A stretch of 64,000 nt of DNA from Candidatus Latescibacterota bacterium. GTDB taxonomy: Bacteria; Latescibacterota; UBA2968; UBA8231. The stretch lies in NCBI GenBank assembly GCA_965219385.1, contig CBDCNM010000002.1, forward strand, positions 1,606,936 to 1,670,935, given 5' to 3'. Shown here piece by piece: positions 15,001 to 21,000 of the stretch (its first letter is position 1; each line of letters opens with the position of its first letter). Made by a program: the position numbers.

Positions 15001-18000
15001 ACGTCGTCTACCCCGCCCAAACTAAGGGAATGGACGACGTGCGTCAACAATCGTTCGGCACTTTTGCGAATTGGGCTGGTTGACTGACAATTCTCAGAAG
15101 AAGCAGGGAAGTGCTTTCACAAACAACAAGATATAGCTTATGCAATGGATTCTGTCGGGAGAAATCGGCCTGGGTGCCTGGGGCGATTTACGTGCGCAGC
15201 CGGGCCGGCTATGGGGCCGGTACCATCCGCAGATTTCGTCGTTTTATGGATAATGAACGGATCCCGGCCATGGCCAGGAGCGGCACCCCCTCCAGTCCCA
15301 TCTTGATCCGGGAAGCCGCCGGGCTCAATCGATGATCCGGGTCGATACGATGTAGTCGAGATTGGGGAAGATCTTCTTCAGGTAGCGGTTGCCCTTCATG
15401 CCGATTTGCCGCTGGCTGGGCCGCTCGCCGTATTCGCTGTTGATCGAATCCACCACCTCCATGCCCTTTACCACCTCCCCGAAGGGGGCAAACCCCTGCC
15501 GGTCCAGGGAGTTATTGTCCCCGAAGTTGATGAACAACTGGGTGGTGCGGGTATTGGGCCCTCGGGTAGCAAAGGTGACCATGCCGCGCGTGTTGCTGGC
15601 TTTCACCGGATCGTCCGGGATGGCGGCATCGATCCACACAGCGGTGATTTCGGGATCCCCGTGAAAACCGAACTGCGCCATGAAATTGGGAATCACCCGG
15701 AAGAAGCGGCACTCATTGTAGAACCCGGCCTTCACCAGGTTGTAGAACCGGTCCACGCCATTGGGGGCCAGATCGCGCGTGACCTCGATCACGAAGTCCC
15801 CCTTGCTGGTCTTGAACTCGACCTCGAACCGGTCCGGCGCCTGCTGGTTCATTGCAGGGCTCTTCGGATCCATGAGAGCTTCCTGGTCCACTTTGCCGCT
15901 TCCTTTCCCGGAGCCACCGCAACCCACGGCTGCGATCGTCAGTCCTGTAAGCAAAATCGTGCGCAATAACATAATCCATTCCTCCTCTAATTCTTAGAGG
16001 CCCTTCACGGCCTCTACCAGGGCCGCGGCAGTAATCCCGAAGTGGGCCCAGGTCTCCATGTAACCCGCGGACGGGGCAATGCGCGGATCGGTAATGCCCA
16101 GGTGCGCCATGGCCCGGCCGCTGCCGACCCCGGAGGCCACAGCGGCAAAACCTCGCAGGCCGGTTTCCGGCGTGCCGATCACCCCGTCCTCGATGGTGAC
16201 CACCCCCTCGTCGTACCCCGAGAGCAATTCCTCCAAAGCACCTGCGGGCAGGGGCAGGCCGTTGACGATAAACACATCCGTGGCCATGCCCTCCTCGTGC
16301 AGGGCTGCAGCGGCCTGGCCTCCCAGGAAAGCTGGCGCTCCAAAGGCAAGGATCGCCCGCCGGGCCCCGGGGTATTTCCGGTACGGGGTCAGGGCCTCCC
16401 ACCCGGAGTCCGGCTCCCACAGCGCCCCGGAGCCGTCCTGTTTTTCCAGGATCGGCAGGCCGTCGTCCCGGGGAATGCCGATGATGTGGCCGCCGTAGTG
16501 CGCCGCCAGGTCGCGCACGGCCACAAAAGCGGCCCGGGCATCGGCCGGGGCGTAGAAGCTGTGCAGGTAGGGCAGGTAGGTCAACCCCACGTTGATCCAG
16601 TCCAGGCCCCAGCCCGAAAAGTGGTCGCGGCCAGTGCAGGCCCCCACGTGGGAGAGGTGGAAGGTGACGTTCAGGCCCTCGTTGATGCCGTTGAGGTTGC
16701 GCTGGTAACGCCACATGTCGAAGCCCTCGCGGGCAATGCCCTCGAAGAACGCCGCAAAGGTGGAGACCACGTTCAGCTGCGGGGCCCGGCCGCTCATGGC
16801 CAGGCCATTGGCGATGAGGCTGGCGGCCTGCTCCTCGATGCTCATCTCGAACTGGTGGTCCGCTGCCAGAAAGCCACGCGCCTTGCCCAGCTTGGTGGAG
16901 GCGTCCAGGTCGCAGCTGACCACGAAGACCTGATCGGGAAAGGCCCGGGCCACGGCTGCGTATCCGGCTTCGGAGCCGGCGCGGGGGCTTTTGTTTTCCC
17001 CGGCGCCGGGCAACTCCACCCCTTCGAGGGCCTCGGGAGCCAGCACCAGGTTGGCGCTGCCCGGCACCGGCCGCGCTCGGGTGACCACGGTCCTTTTGGG
17101 CTGCCGGCGCCGGGCAGCCAGGGCCTGGCTCTGCGCCTCGGTTTCCTGCAACATCGGGTTGGCCAGGACCTGGTCCACGTCCCGGCCCTTCAGGTGGCCG
17201 TCGTGGTGGCCCTCGCCACCCGGCAGCTGGTTTACCAGAAAAACGCACTCCATCATGGAGTGCACGTCCCCGAAGCTCATCAGCGAGCCGGGGATCCAGA
17301 CCTGGGTGTCCAGGGCGACCTGGTGGGCCTCGGCAAAGGCCTCCAGTTCCCCGCTGATGCCGTAGCGCACGCCAAAGCTTTTCAGGTCCACCGGATGATC
17401 GTTGTGGGAGGTGAAGCCCACTGGATAGATCAGGCTGGGCCGGCCTTCCCGGGCCAGGGCATACCCCTCGCGATAGGCCTGGTACAGGGCCGTGCAGTCG
17501 TGCAGGGTGGGGATCTCGATGACGGCTAGTCCCAGGGCCTCGATGATGCTGCGGGGATCCTTGTCCATGATGCTTTTGGTACTGCCCGAAAGCTGAATCC
17601 CGTTGCGGTGCATCACAAAGGTGATGGGCGCCCCGTGCACGTCGGCTCCGTTGAAGCCGTCGAGGGCCTGGCCCGAAATCCAGCCCGCGTCGCCGCAGTG
17701 GGTGATCACCCAGCTGTCCGCGCCGTACAGCGTCCGCTTGCCCAGGGCCTGACCCACGGCCGCCGGAATCATCACCCCCAGACGCCCGCCGTTGAGCTGG
17801 GTGCCGCCCGGCAGCCAGGACACGTGGCCGGGGATGTCCAGTCCCTGTCGGAACCCCTCGATGACTTCATCGGCGTCGATGAAACCCAGGGCCGCCAGGG
17901 AGGTGTAGTAGCCAATGCTGGTATGGGCGTGTTCGATGGTGTATTCGATGCGCTCGTAATCGCAAACCGAGAGGGTGAGCAACAGGGGGGGGATCAGCTC

Positions 18001-21000
18001 CAGCCCGCCGCCCAGGTGATCTACTTCGTTGATTTTGGCCAGGGTGGCCAGCGAGCGGATGGCGGTGCGGGCGGCCTCGATCTGCAGGGCCTGGAGGGTC
18101 TGCTCCTGCTCTGCGGTCAGTTTTTCGGCGGTGCTTATATCCACCTGCAGCGGCAGGACCTGGGAGGTTATGCTGAAGCCCAGGTAGCGGACCTGATCCA
18201 GCAGGGCCTGGTTTCTTTCCTGCTGCTGGGCGGCAACGGCCTTTATGCCTTTCATCCAAGCGCTCCTTCCGGGACGGACGGGTACGAGCAGTATGATATT
18301 ACACAATCGGCTCTTTGGCAAGGTCAGAGTCTGGTGCGGGGTGCAGAAGTTTGTTACCGGTTTTCCAAGGCAGCACTAACGCGGCGCGAACTGCGCCACC
18401 AACCGTGTAGCCCACTCCCGGTTGGCGTGGATGGTGCGGCCGGCGTTGTGCGGGGTGTGGACCACGTTGTGCCGCCCCAGCAGCGGATCGTCCAGGGGCA
18501 AAGGCTCCACGTCCCACACATCCGCGGCCAGACTGAGTTCGTCGGCCAGGACCCGTTGCCGCAGGGCTTCCATATCGCAGATCAAAGCGCGCGTCACCAG
18601 CACCACCAGGCAGCCTTTGGGCAGGGCCCGGATGTGGGCAGCCGTGACCAGGCCCCGGGTCGACTCAGTCAGGGGCACCATGGGCGCAAAGATCTCCGCG
18701 TCCTGAACCAACTGCTCCAGGCGCCACTCTCGCCGCGCCCCGGCGCGGTGGAAGCAAGGCTCGCTGGCAAAGGGATCCCAGGCGGCCACATCCGCCCCCA
18801 GCAGGTTCGCAAAGCTGGCGTAGCGACTGGCGATATTGCCGGCGCCGACGATCCGCACCCGCTTGCCCGCGACCGTGCCGCTGGCAAAGTTCGGGTCGTC
18901 GCCGAACTGCTGCCCCCGGGTCCCCGGGCGCCCCCGGTTATCGGGGGGCTCGTACCTCCAGCTTTCCTGGCTGGTGGTGATGGCGCCGTGGAGTTGCGGG
19001 ATCCGGCGCAGGCCGCACAGGGTCAGAGCCAGACCGTACTCGGCCACGGACTGGCTCCAGAAGCCTTCGCTGGGGTGGTGGTAGGTCTGGACCCCGGCCT
19101 GCTGCAAATACTCGCTGCACTCCGGGGACAGGTTGCCGCTGTAGAGGCCCTGGAAGGTGGCCTCTTTCAGGACTTTAAAATCCCGCAGGCACGCCAGGGT
19201 TACGCGTCCGCCCAGACACGCCAGGCGCCGGATAGGAGCCGCGTCGCCGACGATTTCTCCCAGACAGCGCCCGTCCTCGGGGGCCAGACGCGCGAATTCC
19301 ACCTCCCCCTGCGCCCGCCACAGGGAGTGGAAGTGATCGGCGGCAAAAGGCCAGACCAGGTCGAAATCCGCGTGTACCGCGATCAGGCTGTCCATCTACT
19401 CCTCCTCCCAGTAGTCCACCCCATCCTGCTTGCGGAAAATGCCCCGACCTTCCAGCGCCCTGATCAGCACCTTTTGCGAATCCGGGTACTCGCACGAATC
19501 GTGCGGCAGCACCGTGCCCAGGGCCAGCAGGGTGCAGGGCGCCGTTCCCTGGTTGACGAACTTGTGGGCGCTACGCGGTCCGGGCGGAAAGGCAATGAAA
19601 TCGCCCGCCCGCATCCCCACCTCGCCCCGGGGACTGATGAGGGTGCACCCCCCTTCCATGATGTAGAACATCTCTTCGACGAAGTGGTGGAAGTGCAGCG
19701 GGAAGGTCGAGCGCTCCACTGGCAGGCGGATGATCCTGTAGCCCAGGTGCCGCGCCCCGATCAGCGGGTCAATGTCCCGGGTCTCCCAAGCATAGCCCTT
19801 TGCCCCGGACCAGGGCTGCCACTCGACCTCCTCGCTGTTGATCCGGTTGATGTAGATATCCCGGCGCTCCTCCAGGCACTCCACCAGCCGCTGGCGAGCG
19901 TCCTGAAAGATGGAGTGGCCGTCTCCCACCAGGAGCGCGTCGAAGTCCAGTTCGAGCAGCTTGCGCAGTTCCAGCGCCGCCCGGGGCGGATCCTTTAGCT
20001 TTTCGTCCATCAGCAGGGTGAAGCGGCCCATGGGCGCGCCCACCACCAGGTCCCCGGCAAACACCGCCTTCTTTTGCGGCCAGTAGAGGGCTAGTTCTCC
20101 GGGGCTCTTGCCGTGGCGCAGGTGGATTGCCCGCAATCCCGCGACGATCTCGTCCCCGTCCGCCACCTTCTGGTCCACGGCCGTGGACAGGGCCCCGGCG
20201 TCCTCTTCGTGGGCCACCACCCGGGCGCTGGTGCGCTCCTGGAAAAAGGCGGCCTCGCGCTCGTGGTCCTGGTTGGTGATGACCACCCACCCGGCTCCGC
20301 CCAGAGCGTCGAATTGCTCCAGGTCGGCCGCGCTCATGGGCACCGGATCGATCAACACATTGCCCTCGGGGCGCACCCAGAGATGGCCGTTGAAGTCGAG
20401 CTGCCGCATTTCGCTGAAGATGGACCAGGTATAGAGATCCTCGAACATCAGTTGTTTCATCGTCGTTCTCCTTGTAAGGAGTGACCAAGTTGTAAGGAGT
20501 GACCAGGGTAGAGGCTTGCCCCTGTGTCAAACGCAACATGAGCATCAGCACGTTTGCAGCCGTGGTAGAGTTAGACCGTAGTTAAATCCTGGGAACTTCC
20601 GGGCACCAGCACGGCCGCGCCCTGGATCCGGCCGTTGCGCAGCCGTTCCAGCGCCTCGTTGGCTTCCTCGAGCGCAAACACCTCCACCTCGGTGCGCACC
20701 GGCACCCGGGGCGCCACCTCAAAGAACCTTGTCCCGTCCCGGCGGGTGAGATTGGCCACGGAGCGGACCGTGCGCTCGCCCCAGAGCACCTGGTAGGGAA
20801 AGGCCGGGATCTCACTCATGTGAATACCGGCGCACACCACCACCCCGCCCTTGCCCACCGCGCCCAGGGCCGCCGGCACCAGCGAACCTACCGGCGCGAA
20901 GAGGAGGGCCGCATCCAGTGGGGTGGGCGGGAGTTCGTCCGAGTCACCCGCCCACACCGCACCCAGACTGCGGGCAAATTGCTGACCTTCCCTGTCGCCC

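Follow-up and report, generated by a model that had tools for sequence, protein, structure and literature searches.

A long-branch relative of the Thermotogota-type transketolases as the probable housekeeping transketolase of a Latescibacterota class

In transketolases, numbered here as E. coli TktA, the Glu160/Glu165 pair forms a proton wire between both active sites, and the canonical E. coli- or yeast-type enzyme is recognized by five histidines. One of these, His473, is replaced by Gln428 in human transketolase and is therefore dispensable for transketolase activity, and in the yeast enzyme the change H481Q raised the Km for X5P from 70 to 4080 µM (both in the accessible part of PMC3352088). 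The T. maritima enzyme, presumably a member of the family NF004556, is described as active with Ala for Gly156 and Gln for His473 (excerpt of PMC8317047). Changes at the His473 position have also been reported to let transketolase accept aliphatic ketoacids (PMC7696235 and PMC13663882, in the portions available).

We analyzed a window of 64,000 nucleotides, taken as one whole stretch from a Candidatus Latescibacterota genome (G000), in which an earlier note had proposed a 753-aa ThDP enzyme as the likely transketolase. The open reading frame was intact where the note had placed it, with a GC3 of 0.85, and 114 of 126 aligned sequences began no more than one column from its start (Table 1). The protein missed every curated transketolase cut-off (NF004556, 125 bits against 575; NF004559, 79 against 488; NF004558, 18 against 788; TIGR00232, 22 against 682), which counts against a transketolase and bears out part of the claim that the family is unrecognized. 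The claim held only in part, as NCBIfam transketolase models matched below cut-off (NF004556, E 2.1e-36; NF004559, E 1.7e-22) and some homologues, including P0012 and P0025, bear the JGI label 'transketolase'. Likewise, the weak E1_dh row was not the only Pfam match, being accompanied below cut-off by Transket_pyr (E 8.9e-6) and Transketolase_N (PF00456; E 4.4e-4). Similarity to PDB sequences was as weak as described (best E 7.9e-5) and the homologue set as large, now 1171 among 8000 scored candidates. No cultured carrier was found among the matches listed (120 of about 1170 in each of two homologue listings). The ESM Atlas suggests carriers in Acidobacteriota as well. Open-access papers listed for Latescibacter or Kiritimatiell together with transketolase yielded no description of the family; supplements may hold annotations. 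Short contigs in sponge metatranscriptomes (four runs, one study) covered parts of the gene, which is not proof of transcription. Predicted promoters and terminators were no more frequent than chance would give, with 1 promoter against 1.1 expected and 5 terminators against 4.7.

Table 1. Features of the 753-aa gene and its surroundings, in window coordinates.
Feature	Coordinates	Strand	Remark
Gene for single-chain ThDP enzyme P0001, predicted transketolase (PP, Pyr and C-terminal domains)	15994..18255	-	
AGGAG, Shine-Dalgarno-like	18263..18267	-	8 bases ahead of ATG; read from sequence
N-terminal extension, about 40 residues	18121..18255	-	Alignment with transketolase chains begins at model residue 35-53
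Codons of H80, H111 and H144 (TktA His26, His66, His100)	17824..18018	-	
ThDP/metal motif G188-D189-A190-G191...N218	17602..17694	-	
Family-specific insert, about 65 residues (about 281-345), ahead of the His261 loop	17221..17415	-	
H350-H351-D352-G353; H351 is His261, D352 replaces the next Gly	17197..17208	-	Motif invariant
R425 and S453 (Arg358, Ser385; phosphate site); E475 (catalytic Glu411)	16831..16983	-	
H536 to W549: H536 is His461, D544 is Asp469, H545 for Gly470, G548 for His473	16609..16650	-	
R596 (Arg520), phosphate site	16468..16470	-	

The protein was compared with TktA residue by residue. His26, His66, His100, His261, Asp155, Asn185, Arg358, Ser385, Glu411, Phe434, Phe437, His461, Asp469 and Arg520 were all kept, and this set was invariant in 80/80 metagenome loci. 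Present were a GDG...N-type motif with Ala, the catalytic Glu411, four of the five transketolase histidines and the phosphate/acceptor site. The fifth histidine, His473, was Gly in 191/191 covered loci, which departs from the canonical pattern and speaks against the assignment. Glu160 corresponded to S194 and Glu165 to D199, the latter position being Asn in most homologues. A motif previously given as 'H143-144' is actually G143-H144. Two features are new: a loop, invariant in the family, that has Gly where TktA has His473 and His where it has Gly470, and the insert of about 65 residues, which is partly common to P0149. The register of this loop comes from sequence alignment only, as its residues 539-545 have pLDDT <50 in the family-only model, a point against the assignment.

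Kinship was assessed by profiles and trees. An hhalign comparison with NF004556-type transketolases gave a probability of 99.94 over 612 columns, and the family HMM scored these enzymes at 78-112 bits, human-type transketolases at 25-32 and DXS at 11-31. Both trees, which were quick trees with long branches, joined the family to NF004556 (SH-aLRT 93 and 99), and two scanned transketolases from other classes of the phylum pass NF004556. Alignment A1, used for a first PDB profile search, contained 8 NF004556-like sequences that skewed the outcome. When the search was made with the family only, the best match was a split transketolase C-chain (E 1.5e-10), followed by E1-alpha chains, so the PDB profile search alone is not decisive.

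The predicted fold was compared with known structures. The family-only model had a pLDDT of 90.6; full-length transketolase chains superposed on it at 2.9-3.6 Å (562-594 residues), whereas 11 DXS entries gave 18.1-19.4 Å, and a mixed-alignment model gave the same transketolase/DXS result. The models thus predict a transketolase-type, not a DXS-type, domain arrangement. All 37 listed Foldseek rows were transketolases, in agreement with the earlier note. However, PDH E1 has the same domain arrangement (3.8-4.1 Å), which weighs against the transketolase reading, and Z-scores alone did not separate transketolase from DXS or PDH E1, rmsd separating DXS only. The marks of AceE itself were not found in the protein: H144 stands where AceE has Tyr177, and the family HMM scored AceE at -0.5 bits. 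A separate aceE was present in 131/132 class genomes.

The genome of the window carried zwf, gnd, rpiA, tal, rpe and a DAHP-synthase-family gene, all as claimed, and no recognizable transketolase; its best PF00456 match was AceE (E 6.3e-7), and the 753-aa gene was its sole transketolase-like gene. Orthologues with 60-81% identity occurred in 125 of the 132 genomes of the class, and all seven genomes without one had another PF00456 match, both in line with the earlier claims. Five of the seven had a fused transketolase (the three scanned all pass NF004559), and G001 had a split pair retaining His461 and Asp469. No PF00456 match was found in 63 of the 125 carriers, and a phosphoketolase was present in only 3/132 genomes of the class; both favor the transketolase reading. 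Complementarity with the canonical enzyme thus held for the non-carriers but not throughout, as five carriers (G008, G113, G114, G115 and G117) also hold an E. coli-type transketolase, a point against the reading. The gene was single copy in nearly all genomes, the exception being G072 with two near-identical full matches. An objection based on split transketolase-like pairs was weakened, since Tyr and Thr replaced His461 and Asp469 in 25/25 C-subunits examined from the window's family.

In a second class, Kiritimatiellia by its labels, an E. coli-type transketolase was present in 0/71 carriers against 211/230 non-carriers, although related genomes are not independent in these distribution counts and a small number of displacement events may underlie the 71 carriers. 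Of five Kiritimatiellia carriers tested, only two yielded a transaldolase, which counts against a transketolase. The near-complete exclusion, the TktA residue map and the placement beside NF004556 transketolases together strengthened the transketolase reading and supported it as a predicted activity. As a single joint claim, we consider it very probable that the 753-aa gene supplies the non-oxidative pentose phosphate pathway with its housekeeping transketolase, and that it is a long-branch NF004556 offshoot standing in for canonical transketolase in most genomes of one Latescibacterota class and part of Kiritimatiellia.

Gene context was mostly uninformative, a further point against this reading. 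Among about 195 loci screened, gnd lay directly 3' of the gene in two, with a stop/start overlap in L259, which favors the reading; neither tal nor rpe was a neighbor, and no conserved pentose-phosphate operon was found around the gene. Apparent transaldolase neighbors proved, in the 6 scanned, to be short-chain dehydrogenases that had matched through a long open frame of the query. Common neighbors in the window's family were cyclophilin, EamA, an MBL-cupin protein and a D-2-hydroxyacid dehydrogenase, whose gene the 753-aa gene followed in 35/98 loci. Such a dehydrogenase could supply hydroxypyruvate and, with the reworked substrate loop, would suit a specialized carboligase for another ketose or aldehyde in cells without a general transketolase. 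We regard this as improbable, as the near-universal single copy, varied housekeeping neighbors and mutual exclusion with transketolase fit a core enzyme, and the specialized split pairs that these genomes also carry have lost His461 and Asp469, both of which the 753-aa family keeps.

Convergence on phosphoketolase chemistry (ketose phosphate + Pi -> acetyl-phosphate + aldose phosphate) could also supply E4P and thus replace transketolase, and the phosphate site alone cannot tell both reactions apart. The D544-H545-F546-S547 loop loosely resembles the DHNGFSH loop of phosphoketolases in class genomes; in the Bifidobacterium enzyme, His548 belongs to the active site (available part of PMC10547157). 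An acetate-kinase-like gene in G000 and a phosphoketolase set at rank 13 (score 0.94) in the ESM Atlas would fit this reading; against it, pta was not found in G000. Phosphoketolases (PF09364/PF03894) are transketolase-superfamily enzymes with ketose phosphate substrates, but the family HMM and phmmer gave two of them no score, and no XFP Pfam row appeared at E 0.1. In a motif comparison with two class phosphoketolases, Tyr501, Asn549, Gln321 and His553 corresponded to Phe500, Asp544, Asp352 and Gly548, and the two acidic residues would be expected to disfavor Pi binding. Overall, such convergence seems very improbable.

As a transketolase, the protein would form a homodimer whose active sites lie at the subunit interface, with metal and ThDP held by D189 and N218 and the cofactor activated by E475. 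The ketose phosphate would be bound via R425, S453, H536 and R596, with D544 reading its hydroxyl stereochemistry. H80 and H351 are predicted to assist C2-C3 cleavage and H144 to hold the glycolaldehyde unit by its C1 hydroxyl, after which an aldose phosphate would accept the unit. H545 or water may substitute for the missing His473.

The survey exposed a second gap in the class. While dxr was found in 128/132 genomes, dxs scored above cut-off in only 36, and 92 of the 128 dxr-bearing genomes lacked it; G000 has dxr, ispG, ispD and ispF, and dxs was not found there. These downstream genes would suit a dedicated DXS replacement that is not a transketolase. Such a main role is extremely unlikely, because dxr occurred in only 2/71 Kiritimatiellia carriers against 127/230 non-carriers. 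In addition, 31/31 genomes of family f4 held both the 753-aa gene and dxs, and the domain arrangement and His100 are transketolase-type. DXP synthase (TIGR00204; 13.5 bits against 466) has the same three domains and tied Z-scores, but at 18-19 Å its domains are arranged differently, the active site of DXS lying within a single chain. E. coli DXS has Phe at His100, and in DXS Arg takes the place of His461 and Ser that of Arg358, where the 753-aa protein keeps the transketolase residues, including H144 and not Phe or Tyr.

Because 92/128 dxr-bearing genomes lack dxs, a side activity with pyruvate can be envisaged, in which the transketolase would also make 1-deoxy-D-xylulose 5-phosphate from pyruvate and G3P and feed the MEP pathway. 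Engineered transketolases are mutated at His473 to admit pyruvate, and the His473-to-Gly loop might make a natural dual enzyme. None of the known dxs bypasses turned up: Q408, L633 and E636 are retained by AceE in 18/18 dxs-less genomes aligned, and G108 and D113 by RibB of G000, neither showing suppressor changes, and G000 yielded no RuBisCO-like protein. On the other hand, His100 is kept where DXS has Phe or Tyr (part of PMC7661550), active-site columns did not differ between dxs-bearing and dxs-less lineages, and dxs was also present in 34 carriers. Wild-type AceE and three E1 alpha/beta pairs are other candidates in G000. G001, G005, G006 and G024 have dxr without the 753-aa gene or dxs, indicating another DXP source there at least. 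We regard a dual enzyme as rather unlikely; if real, it would explain an MEP pathway without dxs in most of a bacterial class.

If correct, the transketolase reading would fill a gap in the core metabolism of common Latescibacterota from sponges and the sea and of roughly one in four Kiritimatiellia sampled, where the curated NCBIfam and Pfam models identify no transketolase. It would also add a deep transketolase branch in which the His473 loop is naturally altered and the Glu160/Glu165 pair is absent, offering a ready test of transketolase mechanism and a candidate biocatalyst.

The nearest described family, Thermotogota-type transketolase NF004556 (PRK05899.2-2), is 25-27% identical over about 600 columns and sits with the 753-aa family on one side of the tree. 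Glu160 is missing in NF004556 too (Lys instead), and GDA sometimes occurs there. The 753-aa protein is 110-120 residues longer than NF004556 enzymes, with the N-terminal extension, the roughly 65-residue insert and a further insert of 7 residues behind F503, and its family differs in having Gly at His473, His at Gly470, an Asp following His261 and mostly Asn at Glu165. Human-type transketolase (NF004559; PDB 4kxu and 3mos) filled the top Foldseek rows (2.9-3.2 Å over 580-592 residues) and likewise lacks His473 (Gln428; accessible part of PMC3352088), but is about 20-23% identical and retains both Glu160 and Glu165, with a polar residue at position 473. E. coli-type transketolase (TIGR00232/PF00456) shares the catalytic set except His473 and is mutually exclusive with the 753-aa family in the second class, yet it is only 20.7% identical to the 753-aa protein, with a PF00456 E of 4.4e-4.

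The 753-residue product of the reverse-strand gene, P0001, very probably belongs to a new, deep variant of transketolase (TK) that takes the place of canonical TK in two lineages or more. Its Pfam matches are E1_dh (E 1.9e-6), Transket_pyr (8.9e-6) and Transketolase_N (4.4e-4), and its top NCBIfam models are both TKs (Thermotogota-type NF004556, E 2.1e-36; human-type NF004559, E 1.7e-22), far below cut-off. Some homologues are named 'transketolase' by JGI; NCBI names are hypothetical or thiamine pyrophosphate-dependent enzyme. Given these labels and sub-cut-off matches, the family, which the earlier note had called unrecognised, is under-annotated rather than unrecognisable. 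No description of it appeared among the open-access papers listed by literature searches, and the accessible text of PMC13001223 does not mention Latescibacter. One orthologue, L135, in a genome without a PF00456 match, has an in-frame stop that is either a sequencing error or a pseudogene. Another record, L019, carries a Planctomycetota label but is flanked by genes matching the window's family; phylum labels on such MAGs are thus unreliable, and the homologue previously listed as a Planctomycetes protein (P0121) depends for that assignment on a label of this kind.

Coordinates of the features discussed
Feature	Location	Strand	Remarks
P0001 gene	window 15994-18255	-	intact, 753 aa; ORF with ribosome-binding site and coding-type GC pattern
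Metallo-beta-lactamase-fold and cupin fusion	window 19396-20460		upstream of P0001 gene
Four short genes	window 12588-14018		arranged as two pairs
dxr of G000	C1:1074698-1075072		
Dehydrogenase-transaldolase/FSA frame of G000	C2:257516-259255		single open frame; possible assembly artefact
L135, P0001 orthologue	G007:C33:89884-92142		one in-frame stop

The genome containing the window (G000; two contigs, 94% complete) indeed has no TK recognisable through PF00456, its best match reaching only E 6.3e-7, and zwf, gnd, rpiA, tal, rpe and a DAHP-synthase-family gene are all present, as had been reported. Its remaining TK-superfamily genes encode AceE, SucA and three E1 alpha/beta pairs, and no phosphoketolase was found in it. 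When the NF004556-type profile was compared with its open reading frames, P0001 ranked first. Three Latescibacterota MAGs are said to have a complete pentose phosphate pathway in PMC12993501, whose main text lacks the word transketolase. Elsewhere in G000, a short-chain dehydrogenase and a transaldolase/FSA domain share one frame, linked by some 20 consecutive Glu; the junction may be an artefact of assembly in a simple repeat. E. coli queries for thiG, thiH, thiC and thiE gave no match in G000 at E 1e-8; the gene content suggests thiamine salvage.

Orthologues of P0001 were found in 125 of 132 genomes of the window's class and in none of the phylum's other 36, six of which gave weak matches (both of the two scanned are NF004556 TKs). 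At E 1e-15, PF00456 matched in 69 of the 132 genomes. The proposed complementarity with canonical TK holds in outline, with a match in all seven non-carriers and none in 63 of 125 carriers, but is not strict, since an E. coli-type TK accompanies the family gene in five carriers and G085 encodes a fused TK-like protein below cut-off. Five of the seven non-carriers have fused TKs (3/3 scanned pass NF004559); another, G001, has a split pair retaining His461 and Asp469 (E. coli TktA numbering), and G087 (77% complete) has a split pair only. All 31 genomes of family f4 carry an orthologue, and six have any PF00456 match. The split TK-like pairs common in the window's family (L082-L106) look specialised, as Tyr and Thr replace His461 and Asp469 in 25/25 examined; they probably act on another substrate.

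A second class, that of G172, whose genomes are mostly labelled Kiritimatiellia or Verrucomicrobiota, carries the family in 71 of 301 sampled genomes. Among these genomes, which include kin and are thus non-independent, and for which completeness is not given, an E. coli-type TK (PF00456, E <=1e-75) was found in 0/71 carriers versus 211/230 non-carriers, a pattern that is separate from that of the first class and may reflect few events. Any PF00456 match at 1e-15 was seen in 21/71 carriers versus 219/230 non-carriers; the one typed of those 21 is a split pair. Transaldolase was present in two of five second-class carriers tested. The ESM Atlas also lists clusters in which Acidobacteriota is the commonest phylum.

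Alignment with TktA and Dxs placed His26, His66, His100, Asp155 and Asn185 at H80, H111, H144, D189 and N218; Arg358, Ser385, Glu411, Phe434 and Phe437 at R425, S453, E475, F500 and F503; and His461, Asp469 and Arg520 at H536, D544 and R596. His261 (H351) was taken from a separate alignment, that column having been misplaced across a family insert. The mapped residues were invariant in 80/80 metagenome loci. Glu160 and Glu165 of TK serve in a proton wire; these positions are Ser or Ala and mostly Asn, respectively, in the family. Gly replaces His473 and His replaces Gly470 in 191/191 covered loci, and Asp follows His261 in 193/193. P0149 (756 aa, 30-35% identity, from a cluster of two sequences) is intermediate between the family and NF004556 TKs: it shares the family's inserts but retains Asp-Gly, with a His one place past 473. 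By transferred numbering, His26, His261, Arg358, Ser385, His461, Asp469 and Arg520 appear to match the seven residues that PMC3352088 gives as recognising substrate in M. tuberculosis TK. According to the same source, His473 is not needed in human TK (Gln428) and H481Q impairs the yeast enzyme; His100 is described as the main donor-pocket difference between TK and DXS (PMC13663882, PMC7661550).

The loop D544-H545-F546-S547 prompts a reading as phosphoketolase, and G000 has an ackA-like gene; this chemistry is disfavoured because Tyr501, Asn549, Gln321 and His553, part of the phosphoketolase active site as modelled in PMC10547157, are Phe, Asp, Asp and Gly in P0001 by motif comparison.

What stands out about the TK variant is its rewired His473 loop, along with its occurrence in a class mostly without dxs. 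G000 lacks dxs and has dxr, ispG, ispD and ispF. Of the class's 132 genomes, 36 have dxs and 128 have dxr; 92 of these 128, some nearly closed, show no dxs above cut-off. Mutation of His474 (and His102) lets G. stearothermophilus TK accept aliphatic ketoacids, with a kcat/KM for pyruvate of 0.01 versus 0.15 for E. coli DXS (PMC7696235), and by analogy a DXS side activity is plausible in the family. A primary DXS role was rejected: dxr occurs in only 2/71 second-class carriers, dxs is also present in 34 first-class carriers, active-site columns do not track dxs presence, and four genomes have dxr but neither dxs nor the family. The aceE and ribB suppressor changes described in PMC3424233 were not found in dxs-less genomes; AceE Gln408, a site of such changes in E. 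coli, is Gly in L180 and L191 (G028, G029), both from genomes with dxs. Four dxs genes from two families (L164-L167; G004, G025, G067, G068) form one tight clade apart from f4 dxs, with Asn at the position of E. coli DXS His80; from their sequences this looks like recent reacquisition.

Neighbouring genes were varied and mostly housekeeping. Directly 3' of the family gene lies gnd in L259 (stop/start overlap) and L298, and a phosphoglycerate mutase gene lies 5' in three loci, which is weak support for TK. The upstream cupin fusion occurs in 18/98 loci. The two pairs of short genes are, from their translations, presumably toxin-antitoxin-like modules (RelE-like with HTH; HigB/HigA-like).

Profile-profile comparison matched the family to NF004556-type TKs (probability 99.94, 612 columns), one cluster of which includes 'transketolase [Thermotogota bacterium]'. 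Two quick trees, one excluding P0149, P0248 and nine family rows, resolved the family as a long branch falling on the same side as NF004556 (support 93 and 99) and separate from DXS and from both the human-type and the E. coli-type TKs; its exact position is uncertain owing to long branches. Structure models reached pLDDT 93.0 (alignment including 10 outside sequences) and 90.6 (family only; loop 539-545 below 50). The TK fold noted earlier was borne out, all 37 listed Foldseek rows being TKs. Fold-comparison Z was similar (30-33) for TK, PDH E1 and DXS entries; the family-only model aligned at 2.9-3.6 Å to 34 full-length TK entries, compared with 3.8-4.1 Å for four PDH E1 entries and 18.1-19.4 Å for 11 DXS entries.
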